Assembly (NCBI GenBank): GCA_016223205.1
Contig: JACRPM010000010.1
Location: 26,441 to 90,440 of the forward strand
From: Candidatus Saganbacteria bacterium
GTDB taxonomy: Bacteria > Margulisbacteria > WOR-1 > XYC2-FULL-46-14 > WPAF01
DNA length: 64,000 nt
Direction: 5' to 3'
Part shown: piece after piece, positions 2,417 to 61,291 of the stretch
Layout of the letters: every line of letters begins with the position of its first letter
How positions within the stretch are numbered: the stretch's first letter is position 1
Notes under the pieces: model-generated
Told to the model about the DNA's origin: nothing
The model's database searches: none
What the model saw: only the letters and a program-made list of their open reading frames with translations
Made by a program: the position numbers and the translations under genes

Positions 2417-4444
2417 ATGAAAATACCGTTAGAGTGGCTGAAAGATCTGGTGGAAGTGAAGATGAGGCCCCAGGAGCTGCAAGCGCGGCTCACCATGGCG
2501 GGACTGGAAGTGGGAGCGCTGGAAGGCGAGGTGCTGGATATTGATGTTCTGCCTAATAGGGGGGATTGTTTAAGCATTTTGGGAGTAGCTAGGGAAGTGA
2601 GCGCGGTTACAAATACGAAACTCAAGAAACCAGCGAATAAATTCGCGGTTAAATCTAAGCGAGACGGCTCGACCGAGCTCGCCGAGGTCTTCAGTCTCGG
2701 CTTACACAAGATGTCAATCGAAGTAAAAGACAAAGAACTTTGTCCGAGATATATGGCGAGAATGATAGAGAAGGTCTCGGTCGGGGAATCGCCGGAATGG
2801 CTGAAGAAGAGATTAGTGCTTGCCGGACTGCGGCCGATCAATAACATCGTGGATGCCACCAATTACGTCCTGATGGAACTCGGCCAACCCCTGCATGCCT
2901 TTGATGCGGGAAAGATTGGCGGCCAAAAGATCGTGGTGCGACGCGCCAAACCCGGCGAGAAGATCATCACTTTGGACGGGATGGAGCATAAACTTGGAAA
3001 AGATACGCTGGCCATCGCCGATGACCAAAGACCGATCGCCCTAGCGGGGGTGATGGGCGGGGCCAACACGGAAGTTTCTGCTTCTACCACTTCGGTATTG
3101 CTGGAATCCGCTTATTTCGATCCCACTTCCATCAACAAAACCTCCAAAGCGGCCAAACTGCGCACCGAGGCTTCCATCCGTTTTGAAAAAGGCGTGGATT
3201 GGGAAAGGGTGGAGCAGGCCCTTGACCGCGCGGCGGCCCTTATCGCCGAGCTTTCGGGAGGGAAGGTCACCGGTTATAAAGTTGATATTAAGTCCAGGGA
3301 CCGGAAACCGAAAATCCTGGAATTAAGGCAAGAACGGCTGAATAGGGTATTGGGGACCACGGTGCCGCTAAGTGAGGCCGCGAAGATATTAGTAAGGCTG
3401 GGATTTACCCGCCTTCGCCAAGGCTCCGGCGGGCAGGGGAAATTGAAAGTAGGGGTTCCGTTGTGGAGAGCGGGAGACATCGAACGGGAAATTGACTTAA
3501 TAGAAGAGGTGGCGCGCCTGCGAGGGTACGATCGCATACCTACAACCCTGCCCCGGCCCGCGGGCGAAGTTAGAGAAGACCGGAAATATGCCTTCCTCAA
3601 GAAAATAAAAGAAATATTGGTCGGCTGCGGATTGTACGAAGCGCAAACCTTTACCCTGGTAGATCCCCAGATGGCCGGAGAAGAAGCGGTTAAGCTGGCC
3701 AACCCCATGGCGCCCGAAGAATCGGTCCTGCGGACCGAAATGCTGCCCAGCCTACTTAGGGCGGTCTCTTATAATTTAAGGCGGCAGGTGGAAGACGTGA
3801 AGCTTTTTGAGATCGGGAAGGTGTTTTTGGAACCGCGGCGTTCAGCCGCAGGTTCCATTCCCGCGGGTAAACCCCGCGGTTCTCTTACCGAGGAAAGGCT
3901 AATTCTCGCCGGAGCATCGACCAACCTTGATTTTCTTGGTCTCAAAGGCATTGTGGAAAATCTATTGAATGAACTTACCTCCGATTGGAAGCTGGAATCC
4001 ACCGCCAAACGGGAGTATCATCCCGGACAATCCGCCGCCGTGATCGGAAAAAGCGGAAAACTGCTGGGTACTTTCGGCCGCCTGCACCCCGAACTAAAAC
4101 CGGAAGGGGTCTTGGTGTTCGAGTTTGATATCGACGCGCTGTTGGGTGAAGCGCAGATCGGCAAGCGTTATAAACCCCTTCCCAAATATCCCAAGGTGGA
4201 GCGGGATCTGGCCATGTTCGTGCCGCCGGGGGTTACCTCCGGGCAGATCATTTTGATCATCCGCCAGGCCGGCGGCAACATTGTGGAAGAAGTTCGACTT
4301 TTTGATATATTCAAGAACAGCCAGGCCTATCGCATTTCTTTCCGCGACCCGGAGCGGACCCTCACCGATGAGGTCGTGAACCGCGCTTTTCTTACCATCC
4401 AGGATGAACTAACCGGCAAACTCAAAGTCCAGATACGCAAATGA
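2417..4444 (+). CDS. pheT: Phenylalanine--tRNA ligase beta subunit (short form lacking the B2 OB-fold tRNA-binding domain)
   Basis: 675 aa. N-terminal MKIPLEWLKDLVEV B1 domain runs directly into the ...PNRGDCLSILGVAREV B3 region. B5 and FDX-ACB-like C-terminus present. Starts 2 nt after the pheS stop. Confidence 0.9.
   Translation: MKIPLEWLKDLVEVKMRPQELQARLTMAGLEVGALEGEVLDIDVLPNRGDCLSILGVAREVSAVTNTKLKKPANKFAVKSKRDGSTELAEVFSLGLHKMSIEVKDKELCPRYMARMIEKVSVGESPEWLKKRLVLAGLRPINNIVDATNYVLMELGQPLHAFDAGKIGGQKIVVRRAKPGEKIITLDGMEHKLGKDTLAIADDQRPIALAGVMGGANTEVSASTTSVLLESAYFDPTSINKTSKAAKLRTEASIRFEKGVDWERVEQALDRAAALIAELSGGKVTGYKVDIKSRDRKPKILELRQERLNRVLGTTVPLSEAAKILVRLGFTRLRQGSGGQGKLKVGVPLWRAGDIEREIDLIEEVARLRGYDRIPTTLPRPAGEVREDRKYAFLKKIKEILVGCGLYEAQTFTLVDPQMAGEEAVKLANPMAPEESVLRTEMLPSLLRAVSYNLRRQVEDVKLFEIGKVFLEPRRSAAGSIPAGKPRGSLTEERLILAGASTNLDFLGLKGIVENLLNELTSDWKLESTAKREYHPGQSAAVIGKSGKLLGTFGRLHPELKPEGVLVFEFDIDALLGEAQIGKRYKPLPKYPKVERDLAMFVPPGVTSGQIILIIRQAGGNIVEEVRLFDIFKNSQAYRISFRDPERTLTDEVVNRAFLTIQDELTGKLKVQIRK
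2633..2683. repeat. Family-3 palindromic mini-repeat (GCGAATAAATTCGCGGTTAAATYTARGCGAGA...), in-frame inside pheT
   Basis: About 34 nt are near-identical to copies at 55087-55131 and 61311-61344. It encodes KKPANKFAVKSKRDGSTELAE within a linker that is about 14 aa longer than in E. coli PheT. Confidence 0.55.
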
Positions 4445-4498
4445 CCTCACCCCGCCCTCGGCAAGCTCGGGCACCCCTCTCCATAAAATGGAGAGGGG
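4445..4498. repeat. Family-1 composite palindromic element (CCTCACCC + GC hairpin + CCCCTCTCCA-N5-TGGAGAGGGG)
   Basis: Perfect 10-bp stem hairpin cccctctccaTAAAAtggagagggg followed by TTATTAC. Fills the pheT-mutS spacer and may also act as a terminator. Confidence 0.6.
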
Positions 4499-4575
4499 TT
4501 ATTACAAACAGATTAACTATTGGCTATTTCAGGGATAACCTATGAAAAATCCCGAAGGTGATAAATCAGTAAGAT

Positions 4576-4632
4576 TCCCTCTCCACAAAGTGGAGAGGGA
4601 TGTCCCCCGGCTTGCCGGGGGACAGGGTGAGG
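4576..4632. repeat. Family-1 composite palindromic element (tccctctccaCAAAGtggagaggga + cccccggcTTGccggggg + GGGTGAGG), inverted orientation
   Basis: Lies just upstream of the likely mutS start, inside the N-terminal extension of track ORF 4542. Confidence 0.6.
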
Positions 4633-6866: not shown

Positions 6867-9800
6867 AAAAATCGGTTTGATAATATTGTGCCTGATCCTC
6901 CTGGGCACGGTCGCCCAGGCCGCCGACATCTATGTTGACGCGGTGAACGGCGACAACACCCGCACCACCGCCGAAGCCCAGAACCCCGCCACTCCCTGGA
7001 AGTGCATTACTGTGGCGGCCACCGGAGCGGCGGTGGGAGACACGGTGCATGTGGCGCCGGGTTATTATCTAACGGCCACCGGCGAAGCCTTCCCCATAAC
7101 CATCACCGGACGATATTTTATTTCGACCACCACCGGCTTGGCCACGATCGATTCGGGCACCAAGATTGCTGATGCCATCCATCTGGGAGCCGGGGCTACC
7201 CTGGATGGCTTTACCGTTTTAAATGCCGCACCCTCAAATTATTATTACGACATATACGTTCCCGCTGCCAATGCTCATATCCGGAATTGCACTTTAAAGC
7301 AGAACAGTACTGCCGCACAAAACAGGGTGATCTGGGTGGATGCCGGAGGAGACCGGGTAAGTATTGAAGGGAATTCCCTCACTACGAATACCTCCAATAC
7401 TTCTGCTGTGGTTACCTTTACCAGCGGAGCGGATAATCCTATCATCCGCAATAATATCATCTATGGGCCGGGAAGCCAGACCACCGGCATTGATTTTGGC
7501 ACCACCGTCGCGCCTACGGTCGAAGGCAATACCATAACGGTGGGATATTCCGGCATCGTTCAAACCGGGACCAGTACCAACCAAAATATTCTAAATAACA
7601 AGGTCATTGCGGTCGGGACCAACAATAATTATGGATTCTATGTCGGCGGAACTGCGGCGACCTCCATTACCGGCACGATCTCCGGCAATGAATTTAGGAA
7701 CTGGAACAATTCGGCCGGATCTTCCGGTATCAGGATCGAAAATACCAACGCTAATTATACTATCTCTAAAAATACCCTAGTCAAGAATACGAATGGGGTG
7801 AGAGTCGGCGCCGGCACCGCGACCGTCCGTGACAACATCATCTCCGCTGGTCCGCGAGACGGCACTTATCTTTCGGGCAGCACTGGGATCTACCAATCGG
7901 GGGGAACAATAACTTCCACTTACAACAATCTTTTCAACAACATTACGACTTATTACGGAACAGTTGGCAGTCAATCCAATGACAATACTTCCAACCCCAG
8001 GTTCGTAAATCCGGACGGCAATGATTATCGACTATTCTCCGATTCTCCCTGCAAAAATACGGCGAGCGACGGCGGCAATCGGGGGGCATATGCCGCGACC
8101 GATACCACCTCCGGCATCACCACCGAATCTTATGTGGATGATGGCGGAAGCGACGTAACGGGGGATGGCACATTGGGCAATCCCTGGAGAACGATCACCA
8201 AGGGATTGGGCTCGACCGAGGGCACGGTCTATGTGCGGGCAGGGACCTATACTGCCGCCAAGGGCGAAACCTTTCCTTTGGCGATCGGCAGCGGCCAGAA
8301 ACTCATCAATTATTTAACGGAGGCGGCCACCATCGATTCCTCAACCACCGCCATCAATACTGTTAATCTGGCCAATAACGCCACCCTCGAAGGGATGACG
8401 GTGAACAATTCCTCCAATCAATCCGCCGTATATTTGGTCGGCCCCGACTCACAGTTGATAAACAGCACAATTTATCAGGCCGGATCGGGCGGTTCGGGCG
8501 CCGCGGTATATTACGCGTCCGATGCCGATCGCTGCCTGCTGGAGGGGAATACCATTACCGGCGGTTCCAATTCCGTCGCCGCCCTATATTTGTTGACCGG
8601 GGTGGACAATCCGATCGTCCGCAATAACACTATTGTCGAGCAAAAAACCTCCAGCGCCTATGCGATCTATTTTGGCGGGACCAGCAGTTATCCCACCATC
8701 GAAGGCAATACCATTACAACCGGATATAACGGTATCATCCAAGTCGGGATCTGCACGAATCAAAATATATTAAACAATAAGATCATCGGGACGGGAAGCA
8801 ATATTAATGCCGGGATATATTTTCAGACCAATTCCACCGGAACGGTGGCCAGCAATGAAGTTAGGGGCTGGAGTGGGACGAGCGGCGCCGGGATCTATGT
8901 GAGCGGCTCCACCGCCAATTTAACCCTTAACAAGAACACCCTGGTCAAGAACACCTATGGGGTGCAGGTCACCAATGGGACGGTGAACATCCAAAACTGC
9001 ATTATTTCCGCGGCGCCGAGGGGCGGCACATATCTTTCGGCCAGTATCGGGATATATCGGACGGGAGGAACGGTAACCTCCACTTATAATGATCTTTTCA
9101 ATAACGTTGTTAATTATTCCGGGACAGTAGGAAGCCAATCGAACGACATCACCACCAATCCAAGGTTTGTAAATCCGGACGGCAATGATTATCAGCTATT
9201 TTCCGATTCCCCCTGTAAAAATACCGCGAGCGACGGCGGCAACCGGGGGGCCTATGCCGCGACCGGCGTTACCTCCGGCATTACGACCGAATCTTATGTG
9301 GATGACGGGGGCAGTGATGTTACCGGGGATGGGACATTGGGCAACCCCTGGAAAACGGTCACCAAGGGCTTGGGCTCGACGGAAGGCACGGTCTATGTAA
9401 GGGCCGGGACCTACAATACGGCCAACGGCAACACCCTGCCCGTTTCCCTGGCGGCGGGGCAGACCTTAAAAGGATATGCTTCGGAGATAGCCACCGTCGA
9501 AGGGAACGGCAGCAACCATGTGGTCCTGATCGGCTCCAATGCGACGATCGATAATATTTACCTCAAATTGACCGGGAATTATTACGGCGTATATGCCGGC
9601 GCCTCAAATGTAAATATCACCCGCAGCAAGATCATCGGCAACAGCCAGGGAAGCGGGATCTATTTTGACGGTGCTTTGACCGGCGTAACGCCGGGGGGCA
9701 ATATCACCACCTGTGAGGTCGGCGCAGTCGATTACGGCATTAATCTCTACGGCGCCACCTCCTGCGGAAATATTACCATCGAGGGGAACACCATCCGCGA

Positions 9801-12800
9801 TTATGACATTTGGGGAATTTATATTTACTGGGGACAAAGCGGCGCGAGTAATTTGGTCGATATCAAGAGGAATATCCTCAACAACTGCAACAACGCCTCG
9901 GGGACTTCTTACGGCGGCATCTACGCCTGGCTCCATTACACCGGGACCGTCAATATCATAAACAATACCATTGTTAAAAATTCTTTGGGAATCTATGCCT
10001 ATCGCTATTCATCCACCTTAAACATGAACATAAGGAATAACATCATCAGCGACACGCCGCGGCCGGACGGCGGGCCCCGTAACGGCAGTTATGGCCTGTA
10101 TAAAGATCAAGCGCTCTCTTTCATCTCTTCTTACAATAATGTTTGGAATCAGAGAACCAACTTCTATGGGGTGAGTGCGGGCACGGGCGATATTTCCGCC
10201 TATCCGCGATTTGTGGATCCCTGGAACAATAATTTCGACCTATATTCGGATTCGCCTTGCATCGGGACGGGATCGGGAGGTGCAAATATCGGGGCTTATG
10301 AAGGGGCGGGGGCGGCTAACTCGCCTTACCGGACCACCTCTTATGTCAACAACACCACCGGAGTCGACGCGGTGACCTCCGGAGAATCGGTCTCCAATCC
10401 CTATAAGACCGTTACCTTTGCCAATAAATATACGCTTGGCACGATAAATGTGGCGGCCAGCTCCAACAAGTACAATTCCACCAACAGCGAAACTTTTCCC
10501 ATAGATCTGGGCGCGGGCGGAGGAAAGCGGCTTTCCGGCGCCGACAGCGGCTCGGTCACCCTCGAGGGCTACGGCACGGATACTCATTTAGTTCCGGGGT
10601 CTTCCCTGGTTTATGGTTTAGGGGCCTTTACCAGCACGACCATTGAGGGTATCACTCTGCAGGGTATGGGGAACAATACGGGAGTTTATTTTTACGGGTC
10701 TAATCCAATTATCCAAAATTCGATCATCAAGGGGCCGCTCGCGGGAACCGGTTCTTCCGGCAAAGGCGTATATTTTGACGGCACTAATGGGGCATCAACC
10801 GGAGGCACGGTATCCACCTGCGAAATTACCAGTCTGGACTACGGGATTTATTTCACTGGAAGCACAACCTGCGGCAATATCACGATCGAAGGGAATGATA
10901 TCCACGACAATTATCAATGGGGCATCTATCATTATTTTTGGGCGCCGACCTCCAACGCCAATAATTTTATCGATATAAAACGGAACTTGATACGGAACTG
11001 CCTTAATACTTCCACCTCTTACGGCGGCATCTACGCCTGGACCTATTTTGTGACCTTGAACGTCAACCGCAACACGATCGTAAAAAATCCTATCGGGATC
11101 TATGCTTACCGATACGACAGCTATCTTACTCTGATCGCCAAGAACAATATTGTCGCATCGGAGATCGGCGGCTTTTCGGTAACGGGATCCAAAGGGATCT
11201 TGCGGGAGGGGGGGACCCTGACCAATACTTATAACGACGTATATTCGAACGACACCAATTGGTCGGGAGTGGCTTCCGGGGAAGGGAGCATTTCTGCCGA
11301 CGCCCTTTTCGTCAATGCCACCAACAACGATTTCCATCTCCAGCAGGGCTCCCCAGCCATCGATTCCGGCACACCGGCCGGCACCGACATGGGGGCGTAT
11401 GATTATAGTTCAACTACTCCCACCGTTACCCTGGGAAGCCCCAACGGCGGGGAGACCTGGGGTGCGGGCGCCTGGCACAACATTACCTGGGAGACCACCA
11501 ATACCCCTGACTCCATCAATCTCTATTATATTACCAGCGAGGCCACCGGATATCAGACCATTGCGACCGGTATTTCGGATAACGGCTCTTATCCTTGGCT
11601 GGTGCCGAACCGCGCGACCTCCACTGCCAAGGTAAGCGTCGAGGCGGTCAAAGCGGCAGAGACCGCTCGGGATGAATCGGCCGCGTACTTCACCATCACC
11701 GCGGCGACCAATTATTATGTGGATGCGACGAACGGGAATAATGCTTACAGCGGTATCACTTCCGAGGTCTCGGGAACCAACGGACCCTGGAAAACCCTAA
11801 CTTATGCTTCCACCCAAGCCGCGGCCTCGTCCACCACCCATGTAGCGGCGGGGACCTATAATGCGGCTCTGGGGGAAAGCTTCCCCATCGCCATTGCCAA
11901 CCTTAATTTTATCTCCTCGGCTTCGCCCACTACTTTAGCGACCATCGATGCCGGATCCAGCAACTGTATCACCCTGGGAGCGGCCGGTTATTTGGCGGGT
12001 TTCGATCTTAAATCGACTACTACCGATAAGGTGATCTATGTGACCGGAGCTAGCGCTTATATCGTCAGCAATAGGATGGCAACTTCGTATTCTATAACCA
12101 GCAATTACGATATTGATGTGGCCGATGCCGGCGATAATATCTTGATCCAGGGCAATACCATAGATTCGAAAAGAACCAACAATATCCGTTTGGAGACCGG
12201 CGCCGATAATCCGATCGTCAAGGACAACACTTTGACCACCGCCCAAAGTTACCAAACCGGCATCTATGTGAACTGGGTTACCACCCGGGTCACCGTAGAG
12301 GGGAATACCATTGTCGCGGACCAGGGCATATATCTGGGCAACTCTTGCAGCAATATTGATATTCGCACCAATGTGATCTCACCTTACAGCGCCGATTCCA
12401 GCGCTTATAAGGGAATGTTTTTGAGGGGGACCGGTACGGTGGCCAGTAATGAGGTGCGCGGGTATAAAAATTACGACACCTCCAATACCGCCGCCATATA
12501 TATCTATGACGGCACCATCACGGTCAGAAATAACACCCTGGTAAACAATGTAGTGGGGGTGGGCAACAGCTACGGCACTGCTACCATCAAAAACAATATT
12601 ATTTCCGCCGCTCCCAAGTTAAATTCCATTTATACCGATTACGGGGGCGGATTAGTAAACAGTGTGGGGATATGGGGGAGGGCCGGATACACCACCAACG
12701 CCAGTTATAATAACGTTTTCAATAATTACGCCAATTATTCGGGAAGCAGTATCACCCGATCGAACGAGCTCAATACTTGTCCGAGATTCGTCAATCCCGA

Positions 12801-15800
12801 CACGAATGATTTTCGGCTCTACTATGATTCTCCCAGCCGGGCAACGGCCGACGACGGCGGCAACCGGGGCAGGTATAGCGCTATCGGGACCAGCTCCGGA
12901 ATAACGGCCGAGTCCTATGTTTCGACCGCCGGCAATGATTCAACGGGTGACGGCAGTTTGTCTAATCCCTGGAAGACGGTGACCAAGGCGGTTTCTTCGA
13001 CCGAGGGAACGGTTTATGTGCGGGCCGGTAATTTCACCGCCAACGAGACCTTCCCCCTGGTCCTGACCGGCGGCCAAAAGGCGACCCGTTATCTTACCGA
13101 GTCGGCTTCGATCGATGCAACCGGGGCGGGCGCCAAGCATACTTTTATAACCGGATCGGCCGCCACCATAGAGTCGCTCACCCTGACCGCGAACAACACC
13201 AATGCCAGTTATTTCTCGATCTATTCCCTGGGCAATACCCACATCAAGAACAATACGCTTAACGCGGCGGTGAGCGGCGTATATCTCCGCGCAAATTACT
13301 GCACGGTCGAAGGCAACGCCATAACCATGAGCGGCTCCAGCGGTTATGGGGTAACCGTTCATGACAGCGGCGATTATTCGCTTATCCAAAACAACAGCAT
13401 AACCGCGAATGCCAGCGACGGCCGGGGGATCAGATTGGAAAATTATGCGGATAACATTACCGTAAGCGGGAATACCGTTGAAGCCCGGGCCTTTGGGATG
13501 GAGGTGGCCTCTTACAATAATAATTATAATATTACCAACAATATCTTGAGGGGGGCCGGGGTGGCGAGCTCTTACGGAATATATGCCAGTTACGTTTATA
13601 CCGGAAGCATTTCCTCGAATGAAGTGTCGAATTTTTACTACGGGATCCAGGCCGACTGTAATTCCGGCACCAGCACGATCTGGAACAATACCATCGTTAA
13701 TTTCACCACCGGCATTTACTCCTCGAACGGCGCCGCCAAGGTCATTAAAAACAATATCGTGAGCTCGTTGCCTACCTTCCCCTCGCTCCCGACCAGCGGG
13801 ACCAAAGGGATAGATCACATCGGGGGGACTACCACCCTAAAGAATAATGACATCTGGAACAATGAAACCAACTACAGCAACACCTCCGCCGGGACGGGCG
13901 ATATATCTCAAAATCCCAGATTTGTAAGCGCGGCGAGCAGCGATTTTCGCCTTTACAGCGATTCTCCCTGCGCCGCCGGCGGCGAAGGCGGGACCTATAT
14001 CGGGCGTTTCCCGGCGCTGGGAACTACTTCCGGCATAACCACGGAATCTTATGTGAGCGTGAGCGGAAATGATACGACCGGGAGCGGGACCCTAACCAGT
14101 CCCTGGAGGACCGTCACTAAAGGCTTGGGTTCAACGGAGGGGACGGTTTATGTAAGAGCGGGAACTTACACCGCGGGCGAGACCTTCCCCTTGGTCTTAC
14201 CTGCCGGAGAGCAGCTTAAAGGATATTTAACCGAAGCGGCGACCATCGATTGCACCGGGATTTCCGGAAAGAACACGGTGAACCTGGGAAGCAATACCAC
14301 CCTCGAAGGCCTGACGATCATCAACGCAGAAGGATCCGGCGCTTACCACACGATATATGCAGCTTCCTCCGGATCCCATATCAAGAACAATAAGATATAT
14401 CAAAATGGAGCGGCTTCGGGATCCTACGCCCTGTATCTAACGGCCGCCGCCGATCAATGCAGTATCGAAGGGAATACCATTCAGACCGGGAGCTCCAACG
14501 ATATAACGGTCTATCTGAGCAGTGGAGCGAATGATCCCATCATTAGGAACAACAACCTCACCGGAACAAAGTCCTCAAATTATGTCCTTTATTTCGCCGG
14601 CACCAGCAGCTCGCCGATCATTCAGAGCAACACCATAACCGGAACCTATTTCGGCATTTATCAGGGAGGAGCCCTAACCAATCAAGATCTAAGCAGCAAC
14701 AAGATCATCGCGACCGGATCCAATCATGTTTACGGAATATATATGGGATCGAATTCAACCGGCATCGTTTCCACCAATGAAGTGCGGGGCTGGAACGCCT
14801 ATTCTTATTCCTACGGCATCTGGGTGGGCGGCTTTAGCTCCAACCTGACCTTTAACAAGAATACGATCGTCAAATGCCAGACCGCTCTGGCTACCGGCGG
14901 CACCGCGAATATAACCAACAATATCATAGCGGGGGAGATCGGCGGTTTTTCTGGCTCCAATGTCAAGGGGATCGATAATGACAGCAGCGGCACGGTAACC
15001 TCGACTTACAACGACATTTATGCCAACGATATCACTTACGAAGGAACGGTGAGCAATAAAACCGGAGACCTGCAACAAAATCCTTTATTCGTCGACGCTG
15101 CCAATAACGATTACCATCTAACTTCGACTTCCCCCGCCATCGACGCCGGCGACCCGGCATCGCCGCACGATCCCGATGGTACGCGGGCGGACATGGGAGA
15201 ATACTATTTTAACCAGACCAATGACGCGCCCTCGGTTACCCTGCTCACTCCCAGCGGCGGCCAGAGCTTGACCGGCGGGGCCAGCTACAATATTACCTGG
15301 GCCGCCACCCAGCCGGCTTCGGGAGTGGATCATGTCGACATTTATTACTCCACCAACAGCGGATCGACCTATCCCAACCTGATCGTAGCCGGGACCTCCA
15401 ATGACGGCACTCATCCCTGGACCGTTCCCACCATCAATTCCACCACCGATAGGGTAAAAGTAATAGCGGTCTCGGGGGTAGGAGTTCTTGGCACCGGTGA
15501 AAGCAGTTCGGATTTTTCGATCACCACCGATTCCCAGGGTCCCACAGTCGAGGTTACTTCTCCGATCGGTGGGGAGTTGTGGAAGGGAGGGTCAACCCAC
15601 AATATCACCTTTACCGCGACCGATGAAGCCGGCCTTAAGGCCAATTCCCTTTATGCCTGGTATTCGACCAACGGAGGATCCACTTACCCTAATATCATAA
15701 CTAGTGAAGCCATCATTACTTCACCCTTCGTGTGGAATATCCCAGCCACGATCAATTCCCAGACGGTGCGGGTGCGTTTGAATATTTGGGATGCCTACAA

Positions 15801-18800
15801 CAATATCGGCACCGGGGAGAGTTCGGCAAGTTTTACTATCGATTCCACCCCTCCCACCGTTACCGTCCTGTCCCCGACGGGAGGGGATAAGTGGCAGGGT
15901 GGGACCAGCCACGACCTTACCTGGACCGCCACCGACAATTTTACACTGGAAGCTAATCCCATAACTCTCCAGTACTCGATTGATGCCGGAAGCAGCCGCA
16001 CCGACATTGCCACCGGGGAGGCAAATGACGGGAGCTATTCCTGGACAACGCTTTCCACCAACACCGATGAAGCGCGGATCAAGGTTTTGGCGCAGGATGT
16101 GTGCGGCAATATCGGCTCCGCCGAAAGCGCCAATTTCGTCATCGATTCCACGGCTCCAACGGCTCCGACCCTTTTAGCCCCGGCCAACGGATCAGCCACC
16201 GCCGAATCGCGGCCTCAATTAAGCTGGAATGCGGCAGTGGATTCCATCTCGGGGATCTCGAGTTACGAAGTGACCATCGATACCAACGTAGTAACCATCG
16301 ATGCCACCACCAGCTACACCACGCCGGACGCGCTTTCAGCCGCGGCGCACAGCTGGAAGGTGAAGGCCAAGAATGGCGTCGGTCTTTGGGGAGATTATTC
16401 GGAAACCTGGACCTTTACTACGGGTGTCGGCCCCAGTGCGGCGGGCATTGCGCTCAAAGATCGGGTCTATGGCAGTACCCAGTACTCCAACAGCTTGACC
16501 ATCTCGCTCGAAGTCCACGATGCGACCGGCTCGCCGACCCAAAGGCGAACTGCGCAGGATTCGGCATTTAGTGTCAATGACACCGGCTGGCTGACCTATG
16601 CCACCACCTCCGAATATACCTTTACCGCGGGGGAAGGCAGTCGCACGGCTTATTTTAAGATGCGCGACGCGTTCCAGAATGAAAGCGGCGCCTACAACGC
16701 CTCGATCGTAATCGATACCGTGCCGCCTTCACAGGTAACCCTGCTCACCCCGGCCAACAACAGTTATACCAACGACACCACACCGACATTCACTTGGAAT
16801 GCGGCCACGGACGCGACGAGCGGCGTGGCCAGCTATGAGGTGGTGATCGACACCACCCAGATCGCAACGGTCGGCGCGGTCACCACTTACACCACGCCCG
16901 ACGCCGAATCACAAGGACTGCACAACTGGAAGGCGCGCGCCAAGGACAACGCTCAAAATTGGGGGGAATATTCAACCACCTGGAATTTGACCGTTGAAAC
17001 CACCAATCCAACGGTAACTTTGGGCAAACCCAACGGCGGGGAAACCCTGGCTTCGGGCGCAAGCTACAGCATCACCTGGGAAGCGGCGGACAATTTCGGG
17101 TTAAAGACCGATCCCGTCACGCTCAACCTTTCAACCAACGGCGGAAGTTCTTGGTCCACCATCCAGGCCGGGATCTCCTACGTCACCGGCGAGGGGACCT
17201 ATTCCTGGACGGTGCCGTCGGTATCTTCCACCACCTGTCTGGTAAGCATCGAGGTGGAGGATAACGCCGGAAACAAGGGATACGACATCAGCAATTCAAC
17301 CTTTACCATCTCCAATACGCAGCCGACCGCTACGGTCACTTATCCCAACGGCGGGGAATACTTAAAAGGCGCGACCGCTTATAATATTACCTGGATCGCC
17401 ACAGGCGAGCCGGCTCCGGTCGCCATTAATCTGCGTTATTCGACCAACAGCGGATCGAGCTGGACGCTGATCGCCAGCAACGAAAGCAATGACGGAACTT
17501 ATGCCTGGACCACGCCTGCTATCGATTCTATAACCGATCGGGTCAGCGTCGAGGCGGTGGATGGTTTGGGGAGGGTGGGGACCGGGCAAAGCGCCGCGAA
17601 TTTTGCGATCGACAGTACTACTCCGGAAGTTGCGGTGGTCGCTCCAAGTGGCGGAGAACGGCTGGCGGGAGGGTCTTCCTATAATATCCAGTGGACCGCC
17701 ACAGACACAGTGGGCCTGCCGGCTAATCCCATCACGTTGAGATATTCAACCGATAGTGGAAGCAGTTGGACGCCCATCGCCGCTGCCCAACCCAACACGT
17801 CCCCCTATGCCTGGACGGTGCCGACGGTCAACTCCACCACCGTACGGGTAAGCGTCGAAGCGACCGATCGGGTCGGCTTTACCGGAACTGCCCAGAGCGC
17901 GTCGGATTTTATAATCGACAGCACCACTCCTACAGTACTGACGGTATCGCCCACCGACGGGGCGACCTCGGTTTCGATCAGCGCCACAGTGATCATCGTC
18001 TTCAGCAAGGAAATGAGCCGGGAAGCCACTCAAAACGCATTCTCGCTTTCCGCTTCGCCTGCGGTCTCGGGCGGTTTCTCCTGGAGCGGCGATGGTAAAA
18101 CCCTAACCTTCACTCCAGCTGCAGCTCTTGAATATAATACTCTTTATACGGTCGCGGTGGCCGCCGCGGCAACGGACCTGGCGGGCAACCATCTTACGGC
18201 TTTCTCCTCGAGCTTCACCACTGCGCCAAGAGGGGATTCCGAAGCGCCCCATATCATAATCCAAAGAGTAGATGCCCAAGGTGTGGCCAATACCCTGAAG
18301 GACGGGGATTATATTCCTAAACAGCCCAGGTTCAAAGGGGTCATAACCGATAATCTGGGAGTGAGCCGCGCCACCATCAAGTTCTACCTGGACGATGTGG
18401 AAACGGCGGCAACGATAACCGAGGTCTCTGTCACCAGATATGAAGTGGCTTACACGGTAACCTCCAATCTCGAAGGGGAGACAGTGAGGACTCATAGCGT
18501 TAAACTGGTCGCCAGCGATACTGCCGGTAATTCTACGACCCAGGAGATCACGGGACTTAAAGTTTCCTACGAATCAGGGAAAGTGATCGGCCCCGTGCTT
18601 ACTTATCCCACCACCTATAATCCGTTGACCGGCCAGCCGGCCCGCCTGGCTTACAATCTCACCGCCGACCAAGATGTGATGCTTTATATGCTGGATATCT
18701 CCGGACAAGTTGTCTGGACGGGCAAATATCCTTCGGGCGCCGAGGGCGGCAAGGCCGGCTATAACGAAATTCTCTTCTACGGCCGCTCCGAGATCTCCGG

Positions 18801-46955: not shown

Positions 46956-47137
46956 AGCAAACAGTGTGCTAAGACGGAACCTGCGACTAAACGTCGCGGT
47001 TCCTTAAATCTATTGATTTTAATCAGGAAACCGCGAAGTTCATTCGCGGGTTTCCTGATTTCTCATGTCATTTTTTCTGTTAACCACTGCAAGGAAAAAT
47101 AATTAATTATCGTTTACTATTTGGCACACTGTTTGCT
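46956..47137. repeat. Structured intergenic element: 14-nt long-range inverted repeat AGCAAACAGTGTGC/GCACACTGTTTGCT enclosing two GC-clamped hairpins (46976-47003 and 47024-47057)
   Basis: Hairpins GGAACCTGCGAC-TAAAC-GTCGCGGTTCC and CAGGAAACCGCGAA-GTTCA-TTCGCGGGTTTCCTG. Lies downstream of the OmpM-like gene and upstream of the cargo-operon promoter. Probably a terminator/insulator or a MITE-like element. Confidence 0.4.
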
Positions 47138-50455: not shown

Positions 50456-50485
50456 GGTTTACTCCTATTGGGGGGATTATAGCAT

Positions 50486-50639
50486 GGTAAATAGGGGAGA
50501 GGGAATGGGGAAGGGGAGAGCACGGAACTTAGAACATAGGGTAAGATCCCTGTGCTCTGTGTTCAGTGCCTGCCTGCCGGCAGGCAGGTTCCGTGCTCCG
50601 TGTTCATTTTTCCCTCACTCTTCACGATTTACTATTTCC
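50486..50639. repeat. Element A: ~150-nt imperfect palindromic repeat with GAACTTAGAACA submotifs and an internal perfect 20-nt palindrome CCTGCCTGCCGGCAGGCAGG (50569-50588)
   Basis: Left end GGTAAATAGGGGAGAGGGAATGGGGAAGG. Right end TTCCGTGCTCCGTGTTCA...CACGATTTACTATTTCC. 11-nt inverted repeat GAGCACGGAAC/GTTCCGTGCTC. Homologous to element C (52341-52499) and partially to element B (51081-51144). Confidence 0.6.
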
Positions 50640-50729
50640 AGTTTTTCTTATTATTGAGCCAAATACTAATTTTGCAGAAGATTGGCATACTAATTGCTAG
50701 GGTGGTGGTTAGGAAGGGAGGTGAAAGAA

Positions 50730-51080
50730 ATGTTCATATTTGAGAATTTGGAGGCCTACAAAAAGGCGGTTGCCCTTGCCAAGAAAATATTCTCCGCAAA
50801 TCGAAGGATTAAGGACCGAACCATCAAGGATCAACTTTGCCGCGCAGTCCTTTCTGTCCCGCTAAACATTGCGGAGGGGCAAGGGCGATACCACCAAAAA
50901 GAAAAGCGGCAATTTTACTGCACGGCAAAGGGTTCACTATACGAAAGTCTGCCGCTGGTGCAACTGTGTTTCGAGCTACAGTATTTCGATATGGCACAAT
51001 ACGAAGAAATATATGGTCTGATGAATGAGATAGGGCGAGTTTTGTCGGGGCTTATAAGATCAGTGAAGGGGGAGGAGTGA
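50730..51080 (+). CDS. Four-helix-bundle protein (23S rRNA intervening-sequence protein family, TIGR02436; Avd-like)
   Basis: MFIFENLEAYKKAVALAKKIF...LCRAVLSVPLNIAEGQGRYHQKEKRQFYCTAKGSLYESLPLVQLCFELQYF matches the 4HB / IVS-protein pattern. GGAGGTG ribosome-binding site 7 nt upstream. Track ORF starts at 50694. Confidence 0.75.
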   Translation: MFIFENLEAYKKAVALAKKIFSANRRIKDRTIKDQLCRAVLSVPLNIAEGQGRYHQKEKRQFYCTAKGSLYESLPLVQLCFELQYFDMAQYEEIYGLMNEIGRVLSGLIRSVKGEE

Positions 51081-51144
51081 ATAGCGAAGGTTAGAACACA
51101 GAACTTAGAACACGGAACTTGGAGCATAGGGCGGAATCGCTATT
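51081..51144. repeat. Element B: short hairpin repeat with tandem AGAACAC(A/G)GAACTT units, between the convergent 4HB and FHA genes
   Basis: AATAGCGAAGG...GAATCGCTATT stem enclosing TTAGAACACAGAACTTAGAACACGGAACTTGGAGCATAGGG. Probable bidirectional terminator. Shares submotifs with elements A and C. Confidence 0.5.
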
Positions 51145-52248
51145 TTAATCTTCTTTAGGTGTGGCCTCGGGCAAAGCCGGCGCGCTCATGGCCTCAATTA
51201 ATTGATTTCTGACCGCCTGTGCTTTTAAACTATCAGCCTTCTCCAAAAGCCCCAGAAAACGATCTCTTTCCGCGGGATTTCTGACTGCTAATAATCTGGC
51301 AATTTCTCGCACATCAAATTGAAATAATATATGGCAAATACTATCATCTAATTTTCTGTGAGCCGCTTTGTTTGAAGATCGGTAGCTTGCCAATGAGCCA
51401 GCGGCACCGCCAATAAAACCACCAATACAAACTAAAGTCGAAATGGGAAAAAGTAAGCCCATTATTCCCCAGCCTACTCCAGAACCTAATAGAGTTTGAA
51501 TAAACGTATTTCTCCAGTCGCGCCGGATTTTATCTTTTCTTTCTAGATAAATAGTGAGAAGTTCATCTGTCGTTCTTGCTTCCGCAAAATCAGTCCCTTC
51601 GATCAGAGATGGATCGATTCGCTTGGTAACTGTCAACCCTTGTTCGGCAATAAAGGTTTGAACTATCGCCAATTGTTCCTGTCGAGCTTGAGCTACTTCC
51701 GGCGTGACCTCTTCAATGGGCGGACGGGTGGCTAAAAGCAGACGGACATCTTCACCGATTTCTTTGGCGGTTTCTAATTGTATCTCCAGATATCTGCCGT
51801 TTTTACCAGGAATAGCACCGCTTAAGTGCAGAACCAACCGTGCGCCCTCGGGTATTAAGCTGCCTTCGAGATTCTTGTCGGTTGGAACAGTTATGGGCCG
51901 GCCGTTCGGCTTAAGGAGGGTAATCGGCTTGTCGGAATAATTTAGGATGCGGAAACTTTTACCCTGCTGATGAATGATCTGCGCATGGTTTAAGTCAATC
52001 TGCGGATCATTGATCCGGATTTCACAGCTTCGATCGCGACCTATGGAGATCGAACCGCCTACGGGAAGATAAATCTTCTGGCCGCCGATATGCAGGGTGG
52101 CTGCGATATTCGCGTTCATCTGGGGATTTAAAAACTGGTTCCGAACCCTTACCCGCACCTCCCCGCCGCCCCTGGCCTCCGCGTTGAATCCAATGTACCT
52201 TTCTCTGACCGCTGTTCTGACCGCTCTAACCGCTCTAACTATTCCCAT
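51145..52248 (-). CDS. FHA-domain protein with C-terminal glycine-zipper transmembrane region
   Basis: FHA core SISIGRDRSCEIRINDPQIDLNHAQIIHQQGKSFRILNYSD...NGRPI. C-terminal LLGSGVGWGIMGLLFPISTLVCIGGFIGGAAGSLASY. Real start is probably MNANIAATL (52119). The 5' extension is a 9-mer tandem repeat (GTTAGAGCG)x2. Confidence 0.55.
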   Translation of the reverse strand: MGIVRAVRAVRTAVRERYIGFNAEARGGGEVRVRVRNQFLNPQMNANIAATLHIGGQKIYLPVGGSISIGRDRSCEIRINDPQIDLNHAQIIHQQGKSFRILNYSDKPITLLKPNGRPITVPTDKNLEGSLIPEGARLVLHLSGAIPGKNGRYLEIQLETAKEIGEDVRLLLATRPPIEEVTPEVAQARQEQLAIVQTFIAEQGLTVTKRIDPSLIEGTDFAEARTTDELLTIYLERKDKIRRDWRNTFIQTLLGSGVGWGIMGLLFPISTLVCIGGFIGGAAGSLASYRSSNKAAHRKLDDSICHILFQFDVREIARLLAVRNPAERDRFLGLLEKADSLKAQAVRNQLIEAMSAPALPEATPKED

Positions 52249-52340
52249 TGATGTCCCTCCTAGAGGATCTGCTTTCCTATGTATATATCGTTAAAAACGA
52301 GGCCGGATTTCACTTATTAAGGGATATTTTTAGAATTGAT

Positions 52341-52499
52341 TAAATAGGGAGGAGTAAATTGGGAAGGTTAGAACACAGAACTTAGAGCACCGAACTTAGA
52401 ACACAGGGCGGAATCCCTCCCTGTGCTCCGTGCTCCGTGTTCTGTGTTCCGTGCTCCATGTTCTTTCCGTCCCTCTCCACTATTCCCTATTTACTATCC
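52341..52499. repeat. Element C: ~160-nt imperfect palindromic repeat (long hairpin) with tandem GAACTTAGAACAC units
   Basis: Left arm GGAAGGTTAGAACACAGAACTTAGAGCACCGAACTTAGAACACAGGG. Right arm CCCTGTGCTCCGTGCTCCGTGTTCTGTGTTCCGTGCTCCATGTTCTTTCC. Termini TAAATAGGGAGGAG / CCCTCTCCACTATTCCCTATTTACTATCC are homologous to the element A termini. Confidence 0.6.
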
Positions 52500-53954
52500 G
52501 TTAAAACGATATTTTAATATCTCAGTATCGCTCTCATCGACCTCGATCAGGTGATAAGGAAAGAAAACGTGGGTGTCGGATTCGCGGATGGCCAGTTCCT
52601 GGAGCTTGACCTCCAGGTTGATGTCCGCGGGGATCACCTTTAGCAGGTTTTTGGATCCACCGCTGTTCATGGGCTGGGCCCAGTTCTCGATTATCCGGCC
52701 GATGGTCTCGCGCTTTCCCGCCAGCTCCTCGCCGAATTCGGTCAAGATCGCGAGCAGCGGCTTGCCCAGGCGGGCCTCTTTTAAAAGATTGATCGAGCCC
52801 AGCATGCCCAGGTGCTGATTCAATAATTTTCCTTCTTCCTTTTCCACCGAGCCGATATTTAAAAGCAGGACCTGGCACTCGGAATATTCCCGGCCCAATC
52901 CTTCCACAAAGCGCGAATCCCCCGTGATGCCGATGTGGAGCCGTTCACCGTTCTTCAAGACCAGGTTGGTATCGAGCACCAAGCCCACGGAAGATTCCTG
53001 ATTGGTCCAGCGCTCGGTGTGGTAGGCGGGCTTCACATGGATATGAAAGCCGTATTTTTCCATCAGGGACTGGTTCTCGATCTCCGCCACCCGGTTGCCG
53101 GGCACCAGCAGTTTGAAATTTATCTCCTTGTTGCCGAACAGGTCGGTGGCGGAAAGCAGGCCGTGGAATTTCAAAAGCACTCCGGACGAGCCGAAAATAT
53201 CCAGGACTTTGCTCTTTTTTTCCTGGTTGTGATCGTTGTATTTGGCCAAAAGCGAAAGTATCCCCTCCACCGATTCGGTGTGGTCGTCGTGGTCGTGGGT
53301 GATGATGATGGCGTCGATATCGGCGATGCCCAGCCCCAGCCCGCGAAAGATATCGAAAAAATCATAGCCGGGATCGATGGCGATGCCCTTTACTTCCCCT
53401 CTCCCGTTCCGCAAGGTTAAAAAGTACCCTCCGCCCTGGGAGAGCCCGTGGGAGAATAGGGGAGAGGCGGAGTTCCACTTGTGGATGGTGCGCAGGACGT
53501 TGGCTCCCATCTTGTATTCCACCTGGCGGGGAGCGTTCAGCTCCCTGATCAGTTGGGCCTGGTTCTTTTTTATGATTTCCCGCGTGGGGAAAATGGTCTC
53601 GTCCATGTAGTTAATAGCACGGGTGGCGGAGGAGCCGAGGTTCTTCATATGCAGGTCGTACTGGCGCGCCAGCCGGAAATCCTCGTAAGCCTCGCGGAAG
53701 CGCCCCTGCAGAAAGCGACTGATGCCGCGATTGTAGGCCGGCAGCCCCACATTGCCATGCTTTTTCTGCATCAGGCGGAAAAGCGCGTCGAATACCGCCT
53801 CGGCTTCTTTATAAAGATTTCGGTCTATTAAAGCGTGGCCGAGCTGTTCCCACTTCGCCGGATCGTTCTCATTGAGGGATTTGAGAAGTTCTGGAAAGCT
53901 CTTAAAGCCGCCAAGTAAGTCCTGCAATTTGTGTCCTATTAAAATTTCCGCCAA
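52494..53954 (-). CDS. MBL-fold metallo-hydrolase with N-terminal TPR-like region
   Basis: Metal-binding IIITHDHDDHTESVEG (HxHxDH variant). 486 aa. Confidence 0.7.
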   Translation of the reverse strand: MAEILIGHKLQDLLGGFKSFPELLKSLNENDPAKWEQLGHALIDRNLYKEAEAVFDALFRLMQKKHGNVGLPAYNRGISRFLQGRFREAYEDFRLARQYDLHMKNLGSSATRAINYMDETIFPTREIIKKNQAQLIRELNAPRQVEYKMGANVLRTIHKWNSASPLFSHGLSQGGGYFLTLRNGRGEVKGIAIDPGYDFFDIFRGLGLGIADIDAIIITHDHDDHTESVEGILSLLAKYNDHNQEKKSKVLDIFGSSGVLLKFHGLLSATDLFGNKEINFKLLVPGNRVAEIENQSLMEKYGFHIHVKPAYHTERWTNQESSVGLVLDTNLVLKNGERLHIGITGDSRFVEGLGREYSECQVLLLNIGSVEKEEGKLLNQHLGMLGSINLLKEARLGKPLLAILTEFGEELAGKRETIGRIIENWAQPMNSGGSKNLLKVIPADINLEVKLQELAIRESDTHVFFPYHLIEVDESDTEILKYRFNG

Positions 53955-55182
53955 GGTAGGCGTAGTCCAAGATTACCTGGTTGATCATGATCGAGGCGCC
54001 GGCGGTCTTACTGCCGTCGTTTAATCCGGCCCGCAAGGCCAGGCCGGGAAAGGGACGGAATTCAGCGCCATAATGGTTGGTTTGCGGTTTGCCCGACTGG
54101 CGAAAAATATTCTGGATATCCGCGGCCACGGTGAGCTCATCGATAGGGGTGACAGCCAGGCCGCAGTTGATCGACATGCGATAGGTGAGGTTGGTCCCGT
54201 TCTCAAAGTGAATATCGGTGGTCAGTATCTCCTTGGCCACCGCCCCAAAGGCCAGCTGGTCCACCGGCCGCAAAAGCAAGCCCAGGTCGATCCCCGCCCC
54301 ATAACCTTTCAGGTTCACGCTGGGGATCTTGATGTCGTAGAAATTGAGGTTGCTGCCCAGCGCCACCCGCTCCTCATAGCCGGTGGCCAGCGTGAGGGTG
54401 TAATAATTGGTTTTCTGGTCCTGCACGGAATTATTGTCCGTCAACCAGGATAATCCTCCCGCGAACTGTGCCTTGCCCTGGGGGGAATATTCTTCCTCCG
54501 CCGGGCGTTCATCCCAATAGGTAGGGCGGTGATAATCGCGGTAGTAATAGGGATACGCCCAAGGACCCCAGTAGACGTTTACCGAGGTATGGCGGGCCAC
54601 TTCCTTAGCGGTCGAGGCGGTCGAAGAAAGCGCTTGTTCGGTGACCTGCGCGGCCTTTTCTTTTATCTTTTGACCCACCGCCACGGTCTTTTCGGTGCCG
54701 CCTTCCTTTACCTTTTCCGCCGGCGACTCCGTTTGGTCCACCTTTTCAGTGGATCTTCCCCAGTTTTTCTTGAGCACTCCCTGGTCCGAAAGATATTTAG
54801 CGCCTTCGAGCGCCACCAGGGAAACGACGCCGATGCCGGCGACCCAAAGAAAAGGATTAAGCTCGGTCTCGAAGTTCATCTTGAGCGCTAAAAGGTTGTC
54901 GCCGAGGCAGGCGTTGCGGTTTGAAATTACAGTGGTTCCGGTGATATCCACGCCGGGATTGCGCGCTAATCCCGCCGGGTTCCACCAGGCGGCGTTGGCA
55001 TCGTCGGAGATGGCCACAAAAGCCCCGCCCATGCCCAGCGGTCGCGCCCCGAAATTTGCGAATGATTGAGAGGCAAGAGTAAGCACCAACAAGCCGGCGA
55101 ATAAATTCGCGGTTAAATTTAGGCGAGAATTTATTCTCGGCTTCACAAGTGTTATTCTAGCAAAGCCGCCTTGCAGAAGCAA
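53902..55182 (-). CDS. FadL/OmpP1-family (PorV-like) outer-membrane beta-barrel, third paralogue
   Basis: Signal peptide, then FGARPLGMGGAFVAISDDANAAWWNPAGLA. 426 aa. C-terminal ...LTWRL. The 5' end (signal n-region) is encoded by a family-3 palindromic repeat. Confidence 0.55.
   Translation of the reverse strand: MLLQGGFARITLVKPRINSRLNLTANLFAGLLVLTLASQSFANFGARPLGMGGAFVAISDDANAAWWNPAGLARNPGVDITGTTVISNRNACLGDNLLALKMNFETELNPFLWVAGIGVVSLVALEGAKYLSDQGVLKKNWGRSTEKVDQTESPAEKVKEGGTEKTVAVGQKIKEKAAQVTEQALSSTASTAKEVARHTSVNVYWGPWAYPYYYRDYHRPTYWDERPAEEEYSPQGKAQFAGGLSWLTDNNSVQDQKTNYYTLTLATGYEERVALGSNLNFYDIKIPSVNLKGYGAGIDLGLLLRPVDQLAFGAVAKEILTTDIHFENGTNLTYRMSINCGLAVTPIDELTVAADIQNIFRQSGKPQTNHYGAEFRPFPGLALRAGLNDGSKTAGASIMINQVILDYAYLGGNFNRTQIAGLTWRL
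55081..55134. repeat. Family-3 palindromic mini-repeat (AAGCCG-GCGAATAAATTCGC-GGTTAAATTTAG-GCGAGAATTTATTCTCGGC-TT)
   Basis: Near-identical to 2633-2666 and 61311-61344. Forms two adjacent hairpins bounded by AAGCCG/CGGCTT. Confidence 0.55.
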
Positions 55183-55800
55183 GAAAGAGCTGGTAAAATG
55201 GCCGGCATGTGGATTTTTGATCGGGCGCGCGAAATATTATTGTTCCCCAAAGAGGCCTGGGAGAAGATAAAACTCGAGGAGATCAAGGACTGGAAGACGA
55301 TCATCATATATCCGGTGGTGCTGGCCCTATTCTCCGCGGCCGCTTTTTTTATTGGCTACTTCATTGTAGGAGTAAGGATTGGGGTGGTTGGTTATTACCG
55401 GATGTCAGCTATTGATGCTTTCTTTTCAGCGGTAGTTTTTTTCTTTTTAGCTCTGCTGGGTGTGGTGGTCACTGGCTTCATTATTTTATTCCTGGCTAGT
55501 TATTTTTTGGCGGAGGGGGATTTTTTTGCAGCCCTAAAGCTTTCCGTTTATTCGGCGACCGCACCGATTTTAGCGTCAGCTTTTAATATTATTCCCGGGT
55601 TAAAAATTCTTGAGATACTGGGATTGTATGGTGCTTACTTATTGTATGCGGGTATTCCTTTGCTTATGAAGGCCCCGCACGATAAAGAACAACAATTTAT
55701 TTTCACTTCCATAATTTTTGCTGTGGTAATGGTATTACTAATCCATGCTTTAGTAGGTTCTTATGTGTCCCCTATCTTTAGGGAGATGATAGTTTATTAG
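55171..55800 (+). CDS. Yip1-family polytopic membrane protein (tentative)
   Basis: 209 aa. 4-5 predicted TM helices after a soluble N-terminal segment (WIFDRAREILLFPKEAWEKI), resembling Yip1/DUF1282 topology. Confidence 0.35.
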   Translation: MQKQERAGKMAGMWIFDRAREILLFPKEAWEKIKLEEIKDWKTIIIYPVVLALFSAAAFFIGYFIVGVRIGVVGYYRMSAIDAFFSAVVFFFLALLGVVVTGFIILFLASYFLAEGDFFAALKLSVYSATAPILASAFNIIPGLKILEILGLYGAYLLYAGIPLLMKAPHDKEQQFIFTSIIFAVVMVLLIHALVGSYVSPIFREMIVY

Positions 55801-55815
55801 CTCCTTTACCCCGCA

Positions 55816-57252: not shown

Positions 57253-57269
57253 TTGTTTAACCGCGACGT

Positions 57270-61278: not shown

Positions 61279-61291
61279 GATAACTCTAGAA

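Follow-up and report, generated by a model that had tools for sequence, protein, structure and literature searches.

A short palindromic sequence occurs three times in a 64,000-nt stretch of a Candidatus Saganbacteria genome (assembly GCA_016223205.1, contig JACRPM010000010.1; "the window" below means this whole stretch), once inside pheT, once at the start of a PorV/PorQ-like gene, and once in the spacer between a GH94 gene and bioB. What kind of element is this, and how does it come to be translated in some places and intergenic in others? The original prediction described it as a mobile palindromic unit, here called Family 3, that tolerates insertion in frame. We found that Family 3 is probably a non-autonomous dispersed hairpin repeat of ~52-54 bp that is specific to one clade within Saganbacteria (Margulisiibacteriota).

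The repeat is indeed shared by the three sites. Two of them, 2633-2664 and 55097-55128, match the 32-mer GCGAATAAATTCGCGGTTAAATYTARGCGAGA without a mismatch (0 matches expected from 100 shuffles), and the site at 61312-61344 has just the 3' two thirds of it, CGGTTAAATTTCGGCGAGAATTCATTCTCGCC; a shorter core, GGTTAAATnTnnGCGAGA, matches also at 61314, and the core common to all three copies is GCGGTTAAATyTnrGCGAGA. The predicted extents of ~34 nt capture this shared core but fall short of the whole, since similarity in the three-copy alignment reaches AAACC leftwards and GGCTT rightwards. The full copies are as follows:

Copy 1, 2628-2703, plus strand: in frame in pheT, residues 71-96, made up of AACC-a, hairpin 1 (2633-2646), the linker GGTTAAATCTAA (2647-2658), a split hairpin 2 (2659-2701), and TT.
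Nested segment, 2665-2688, plus strand: 24 nt (8 codons) in the hairpin 2 loop of copy 1.
Copy 2, 55091-55143, plus strand: its minus-strand reading gives codons 2-19 (KPRINSRLNLTANLFAGL) of the PorV/PorQ-like gene at 53902-55146.
Copy 3, 61290-61345, plus strand: in the GH94-bioB spacer, its right end overlapping the GH94 stop codon at 61344-61346.

Pfam matches confirmed GH94, bioB, pheS, pheT, and a Yip1 gene in the window. The unit is laid out as AACC-n-hairpin1-GGTTAAATTTAr-hairpin2-GGCTT, with the consensus aAACC-n-GCGAATrAATTCGC-GGTTAAATTTAr-GCGAGAATTTATTCTCGGC-TT, and conservation stops at AACC and GGCTT. In copy 3, hairpin 1 has been replaced by a different palindrome, GCCCCGGTAAACCGGGGC. 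The 24-nt segment nested in copy 1 is found in the window only, where it occurs once, and the orthologous copies in L039 and L032 are without it.

Further copies exist elsewhere, although few lie in reference genomes. When representative genomes were scanned for the 20-nt core, 1 true copy came up, in a metagenome-assembled genome (MAG) labelled Omnitrophota, so that neither the source genome nor its close relatives are among those representatives; a metagenome scan returned 31 loci with ~22 true copies, mostly from one JGI contig set (Ga0315...). Counting this MAG and the JGI metagenome contigs, the further independent copies number ~20. Searching with nhmmer and the seed alignment added 2 full copies and ~10 single-hairpin units, and searches of phage and plasmid sequences gave no match. 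This genome has several hairpin-repeat families, of which Family 3 is one, and single-hairpin units occur alongside it, three of them in the window:

Single-hairpin unit, 46976-47003, plus strand: GGAACC-TGCGAC-TAAAC-GTCGCG-GTTCC followed by TTAAAT, resembling hairpin 1 of the family.
Single-hairpin unit, 47026-47055, plus strand: GGAAACC-GCGAA-GTTCA-TTCGC-GGGTTTCC.
Single-hairpin unit, 57259-57282, plus strand: AACC-GCGAC-GTTCA-GTCGC-t-GGTT, at the 3' end of an aminotransferase (bioA-like) gene; the same site in L047 holds a variant with another loop.

The window PheT is identical to an NCBI protein entry from a Candidatus Saganbacteria MAG, and its close homologues all come from Saganbacteria, Margulisiibacteriota, or WOR-1. 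The Omnitrophota-labelled MAG (L004/L018) carries a perfect Family-3 copy, and a PorV homologue 57% identical to the window protein (P0254) is likewise labelled Omnitrophota. Since this homologue bears the same label, the label may be a misclassification; otherwise, the repeat may be present across phyla.

We then considered how the unit folds. The original prediction was that each copy forms adjacent hairpins. Copies 2 and 3 fold far better than their shuffles (z -5.4 and -5.3); copy 1 does not (z -1.5), for it retains hairpin 1 but has its hairpin 2 split by the nested segment. Across 21 copies and 500 shuffles, a model of two hairpins, with an outer AACC/GGTT-type stem and one bulge each, left 96.6% of cells paired, with 15 cells changed on both sides, and 0/500 shuffles reached either the pairing or the covariation. 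On the other hand, a single long hairpin left 84.8% paired, shuffles did as well (322/500), and its informative pairs were broken in 8/21 copies. The compensatory changes support two separate hairpins over one long one, arranged as mirror images around the palindromic linker GGTTAAATTTAr. Stem variants that exchange AU for CG occur in hairpins 1 and 2 in all four combinations, and the two hairpins therefore behave as separate modules. Covariation of this kind need not mean selection, because the copies are kin and template switching can let palindromes correct themselves.

Long open reading frames (ORFs) contain about half of the independent copies, and roughly half of the total is intergenic. 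The consensus has no stop codon in 4/6 frames and spans ~18 codons, and three frames are in use, with host proteins assigned through Pfam or Protein Data Bank (PDB) matches:

Frame A, same strand as the core: PANKFAVKFKR..., in PheT, an Amidase_3/AMIN protein, and one secreted protein without family assignment.
Frame B, opposite strand to the core: KPRINSRLNLTANSFAG, in MiaA, LeuC, an outer membrane protein (OMP) beta-barrel, and the PorV-like gene of the window.
Frame C, opposite strand to the core: ENKFSPKFNREFIRR, in a GH5 cellulase and an M23 peptidase.

Peptides predicted from the repeat include INSRLNLTANSFAG and ANKFAVK. The translated copies occupy segments that are likely to tolerate change: five of them make up a signal-peptide n-region, and the others lie in PheT between its N-terminal stretch and the B3/4 domain, in internal parts of LeuC and MiaA, and in the C-terminal tail of GH5. 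MiaA proteins with the repeat are +11 to +13 aa longer than solved homologues. Of the intergenic copies, 7 touch or overlap a stop codon, by 0-8 nt and with one or the other of their ends, and in L025 a copy exactly spans the gap between two convergent genes. Together, the use of both orientations, three reading frames, and intergenic DNA in many independent assemblies bears out the idea of a dispersed family at the DNA level, and the copies in PheT, MiaA, and LeuC bear out the claim that conserved housekeeping genes tolerate it in frame.

What does the history of individual sites reveal? In pheT, the copy falls between an N-terminal segment that aligns with orthologues (residues 1-~65) and the B3_4 domain (from residue 109); B3_4, B5, catalytic-like, and FDX-ACB domains are matched by Pfam, and tRNA_bind is not. 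The window, P0002, P0007, and P0008 carry the element; the closer P0003, P0004, and P0005, as well as P0006, lack it and have other lysine-rich sequences at the same place; P0010 may retain a decayed copy. On a neighbour-joining tree of PheT, the element-bearing sequences are not monophyletic, and the distribution is patchy. From AREV to CPRY, the linker is ~33 aa long in orthologues lacking the repeat and 37 aa in those that carry it; in the window it reaches 45 aa. A 14-aa insert had been proposed here, but the copy is no simple insertion of that length: the repeat-derived segment is 18 codons (26 in the window), with a net gain of just +4 aa (+12 in the window). Orthologues without the repeat do have a different and shorter linker, so the idea that relatives would share the same linker in length and sequence finds no support. 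One of the window's heptamer-type repeats has AAGTTCTAAGTTC in common with the fillers in L041 (P0005) and L043 (P0003), the latter of which holds an additional internal segment; for the L041 linker, the match is to repeats of the D9/D14 type.

A second repeat interrupts the same gene, belongs to a different family, and offers a cleaner case:

Two-hairpin element of a different family, 3830-3886, plus strand: 57 nt, 19 codons in frame in the PheT catalytic-like domain, reading GGAACC-GCGGC-GTTCA-GCCGC-a-GGTTCC att CCGCGGG-TAAAC-CCCGCGG-TTC.

This element is a clean insertion, absent from the orthologues in L039, L041, and L043. An AlphaFold2 model of the window PheT, built on an 18-sequence alignment, has a mean pLDDT (predicted local distance difference test score) of 78. 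The Family 3 segment (residues 74-96) and that of the 57-nt element (474-490) both lie between well-predicted domains, with pLDDT <50 and no secondary structure, values that could partly reflect how few homologues align there, and the two repeat-derived segments are predicted to be disordered. The window PheT is 675 aa long and lacks the B2 tRNA-binding domain, which the 81%-identical orthologues P0003/P0004 (L043) have; the patchy presence of B2 on the PheT tree suggests recent loss or recombination.

The same pattern is seen, and more clearly, in LeuC. The form common to 120 orthologues (82-91% identity) is 419 aa long and has LK-KVKAGKGIV-Y as its loop; the version with the element has 426 aa. 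The loop, between YLK and SDP, is hypervariable and also takes at least 5 other fillers of +7 to +24 aa (P0121-P0240; L023, L044, L045, L046), of which one is a tandem AATTCGT heptamer and one contains a nested mini-palindrome peptide, LPAGRHG. At the peptide level only, LPAGRHG resembles a CTGCCGGCAGG-containing insert nested in the L020 copy, inside hairpin 1. Elsewhere, the 24-nt nested insert, CCCCGGTAAACCGGGG, and CTGCCGGCAGG are rare, each with just 1-2 occurrences in 425 kb of the window and related loci. In sister lineages, the PheT and LeuC loops hold different sequences, some of which at least derive from repeats. We found no clean empty site for either copy, and the insertion junctions are unreadable, because relatives without the repeat hold other sequence of nearly equal length.

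The PorV-like gene required a revision of its start. The original prediction placed the repeat in the signal n-region of a "FadL-like" gene at 53902..55182; the n-region assignment stands, but the product starts MKPRINSRLNLTANLFAG from a GTG at 55146 that is conserved among orthologues, which leaves the predicted residues RITLV upstream of the protein. The ORF has no Pfam hit, and one source assigns a homologue to the PorV/PorQ family. By the NCBI start and the conserved ATG/GTG-AAG-CCG of the orthologues, the element occupies codons 2-19 and covers the n-region together with the first residues of the h-region. The two nearest orthologues begin MKPILIAG... and VKPRKILIGAG..., and in the other ~85 homologues the signal peptide is an ordinary one, 20-24 residues long. 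At the site of copy 2, L047 and L048 keep AAGCCGAGAAAAATCCTC...GCCGGTTT, the ends of the element, with the middle deleted. Because these ends remain, we take the sites to be decay remnants and not virgin sites, and we rejected them as empty sites.

The intergenic copy gives the clearest insertion of Family 3. The nearest relative, the P0002 genome, is ~85% identical at the nucleotide level across the compared blocks, and its GH94-bioB spacer (L047) is 13 nt long vs 65 nt in the window, with the alignment calling a 52-nt segment found in the window only. Together with the copy 2 remnant in the same relative, this supports the predicted mobility of the unit. In L024, another relative, the GH94-bioB element has a canonical hairpin 1 where the window has the replacement palindrome of copy 3, so that a hairpin was swapped at an orthologous site. 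Where the window and its nearest relative are syntenic, over ~24 kb, hairpin palindromes account for most indels of at least 12 nt, including in-frame ones in bioA, bioF, and another gene. Our findings show that copies have been gained, lost, internally deleted, point-mutated, given nested palindromes, or had their hairpins swapped between close relatives.

Several further segments were seen in these comparisons. Relative to L047, the window alone has hairpin segments inside biotin-synthesis ORFs, at 58117-58149 (33 nt, bioA-like) and 59330-59362 (33 nt, bioF-like), both keeping the frame, and at 60282-60352 (71 nt, 3' end of bioB). About 2 kb at 50461-52496, in two blocks, is also absent from L047 and is bounded by the heptamer-type repeats GAACTTA/GAACACA (D9, D14). 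In the other direction, L039 has a half element (GGAACCGGCGACTAAAGTCGCGGTTAAATTTT) at 8135-8175, upstream of a SpoU methylase gene, which the window is without; gain and loss thus run both ways.

The in-gene copies are also conserved at synonymous sites beyond their host genes in PheT, LeuC, and GH5. Between the window and L032, PheT has 64% nucleotide identity and 40% third-position identity gene-wide, while its element matches at 49/54 nt and 17/18 third positions; outside the 20-nt core used for retrieval, the match is still 30/34 nt and 11/12 third positions (p = 3e-4). In LeuC, L023 and L046 agree at 16/18 third positions vs 53.5% gene-wide, and this pair is unbiased by the DNA pattern, since L046 was obtained through its protein. 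GH5 shows a similar third-position excess. The close pair of window and L039 shows no such excess in PheT, and the L039 copy has point mutations. In hairpin 1, the window and L032 differ by a compensatory AT-to-CG change. To stay this well conserved, the copies must either be under selection as nucleic acid or be re-copied continually from a genomic pool.

How, then, does the unit spread? If Family 3 is the non-autonomous repeat that we think it probably is, an enzyme that recognises DNA hairpins would copy it in trans, the likeliest candidate being a RAYT (REP-associated tyrosine transposase, where REP stands for repetitive extragenic palindrome) or IS200-type (IS, insertion sequence) HUH tyrosine transposase that works on single-stranded DNA, and/or the unit would spread by gene conversion that hairpins guide. 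Repeated targeting of the same hairpin-compatible sites could give both the replacement-like lengths and the high DNA conservation inside genes. The single-stranded HUH style fits better than cut-and-paste, as in MITEs (miniature transposable elements with inverted repeats), because there is no consistent duplication, units occur singly and as doublets, and elements nest.

A number of observations weigh against this explanation. A crude motif scan of the same 425 kb, covering 64 kb of this genome plus flanks of related loci, found no Y1/HUH transposase or RAYT, a negative of little weight, and the flanks of 18 copies have no consistent target-site duplication or fixed terminal dinucleotide; TA or stop-like triplets lie at variable distance, and two flanking pairs, TAG...TAG for copy 3 and TTG...TTA for the 57-nt element, are no more than suggestive. 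The length gains of +4 aa in PheT, +7 in LeuC, and +10 in the PorV-like protein, where the whole unit would add +17/+18, mean that simple insertion is shown for Family 3 solely at the intergenic site, and otherwise for the related 57-nt element. The unit is, moreover, neither restricted to extragenic DNA nor furnished with a GTAG-type 5' motif, unlike REP sequences. The sampling must be considered too: an exact 20-nt pattern served to retrieve most loci, and the sample is therefore biased towards well-preserved copies.

A stronger proposal is that Saganbacteria have a hairpin-directed copy-and-replace system in place of classical transposition, in which families of short hairpin and heptamer repeats would compete for shared landing sites in conserved proteins and be continually re-copied. 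This reading is invited by the LeuC loop, for which at least 5-6 alternative fillers of much the same length are seen, by the PheT linker, with 3 or more, and by signal n-regions, which are occupied repeatedly; we put it forward tentatively, as a less likely possibility.

We also considered whether Family 3 could be a selected cis-acting element, either a bidirectional 3'-end hairpin (a terminator or mRNA stabiliser) or a protein-binding site, which selection would maintain at every position and which would act as RNA or DNA inside genes too; we regard this as unlikely. Hairpins kept by compensatory changes, intergenic copies flush with stop codons, the exactly filled gap in L025, and in-gene conservation above the synonymous expectation would all suit such a function. 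On the other hand, most copies have no U-tract, terminator-like sites number 8 vs 9.5 expected over 54900-61500, and the window contains no match to any Rfam family at gathering thresholds. The GH94-bioB copy is missing from the nearest relative, which has also lost most of the PorV copy, sister lineages hold unrelated sequences in the same protein loops, and both orientations and several frames are in use. A rho-independent terminator in particular is not supported, most copies having no T-run after hairpin 2.

Equally doubtful is spread without any enzyme, through template switching and gene conversion between palindromes that overwrite hot-spot loops. This would account for the replacement-like lengths in PheT, LeuC, and the PorV-like gene, the resemblance of LeuC and PorV flanking sequence to the element ends AAGCC...GGCTT, the hairpin swap between copy 3 and L024, the orthologous single-hairpin units that differ in their loop (TTCA vs TGAAC), and the independent assortment of the two stem variants. 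However, it fits poorly with new copies that had no earlier palindrome to start from, namely the 57-nt insertion in pheT and the 52-nt spacer copy, and it leaves unexplained how genomes with only 65% PheT identity retain one ~52-nt consensus.

Very improbable, in our view, is a shared peptide module selected at the protein level as a lysine-rich linker or n-region: although the encoded peptides are K/R-rich and do lie in linkers and n-regions, the DNA is read in three frames on both strands to give unrelated products (PANKFAVKFKR, KPRINSRLNLTANSFAG, and ENKFSPKFNREFIRR), a multi-frame usage that excludes such a module, and roughly half of the copies are intergenic and third positions are conserved. 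An assembly artefact is scarcely conceivable, for even though every sequence comes from a MAG or metagenome contig, the pheT copy sits at the same codon position in independent NCBI, ENA, Logan, and JGI assemblies (window, L039, L040, L032), with reading frames intact.

A probable non-autonomous hairpin repeat of this kind invites comparison with known systems. Its closest counterpart in action is the Rickettsia palindromic element (RPE), which, as summarised in a 2024 review, is ~100-150 bp long, is found in an alphaproteobacterial genus, and makes true additions of 30-50 aa (Ogata et al. 2000 via PMC10969869). Both are dispersed palindromic repeats with stop-free frames, lie in frame in unrelated housekeeping genes, and have no known transposase. 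The Saganbacteria unit is set apart by description: it is ~52-54 bp, or ~18 codons, built of two hairpins, found in a phylum sister to Cyanobacteria, often placed at n-regions, and marked by replacement-like lengths and hot-spot loops. The same review treats RPEs as unusually frequent in in-frame fusions, mentions MITE fusions in general, and only speculates on a similar process in other prokaryotes (PMC10969869).

In its build, the unit recalls REP sequences and REPINs (REP doublets forming hairpins), which are extragenic doublets that form a long hairpin and are tied to RAYTs (PMC3116915). Common to both are GC-stemmed imperfect palindromes, single and inverted-doublet units, positions next to stop codons, several families, and non-autonomy, but about half of the Saganbacteria copies are translated, they form two hairpins and not one long one, and they lack a GTAG-type 5' motif. 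MITEs are likewise small non-autonomous palindromes with occasional in-frame ORF fusions, as in ERIC and Correia (PMC10969869); they have IS-derived terminal inverted repeats, a defined duplication, and lengths mostly of at least 100 bp, whereas the Saganbacteria unit is half that size and is palindromic as a whole, from AACC to GGCTT. For our unit no consistent target-site duplication was found, nor any parent IS, for which no dedicated search of the genome was made. The small dispersed repeats and short tandemly repeated repetitive (STRR) sequences of cyanobacteria are reportedly 21-27 nt long and almost all non-coding. Like the repeats described here, they are very small and nest in one another and in hairpins, and the LeuC loop here is also filled by a tandem heptamer. 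In short, the unit is RPE-like in action and REP-doublet-like in build and is a member of neither family. Full-text literature searches gave nothing on palindromic repeats of this sort in Saganbacteria, Margulisbacteria, or Omnitrophota.

In-frame palindromic repeats, which have been treated as an oddity almost unique to Rickettsia, appear here in a free-living uncultivated phylum with a smaller, REP-like unit, and Family 3 joins the REP/REPIN and RPE literatures. PheT, LeuC, MiaA, and the signal peptides offer orthologous test cases, with and without the repeat, for studying the entry of selfish DNA into genes and its tolerance by proteins. Such repeats may yield new loops and signal-peptide variants, and they will disturb gene-start calls, orthologue alignment, and MAG assembly. 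If a copy-and-replace system does operate, it would diversify exposed loops and signal n-regions, and the insert DNA would stay far more conserved than the host gene.

The surroundings of pheT vary as well. The pheT-mutS spacer at 4447-4628 (182 nt) is packed with palindromes of the CCCCTCTCCAT...ATGGAGAGGGG type, which also occur at 26686 and 56226, and in the nearest relative (L039) pheT and mutS overlap. In L041, the MutS at 11923-15474 carries an intein (Intein_splicing and LAGLIDADG_3) that is absent from the window MutS, and the gap between pheS and pheT is ~485 bp, where the window genes abut. Finally, the long internal direct repeats at 7400-18000 (units of ~1160 nt and ~310 nt; D1-D7) correspond to a giant Beta_helix/DUF1565 protein annotated in L039.

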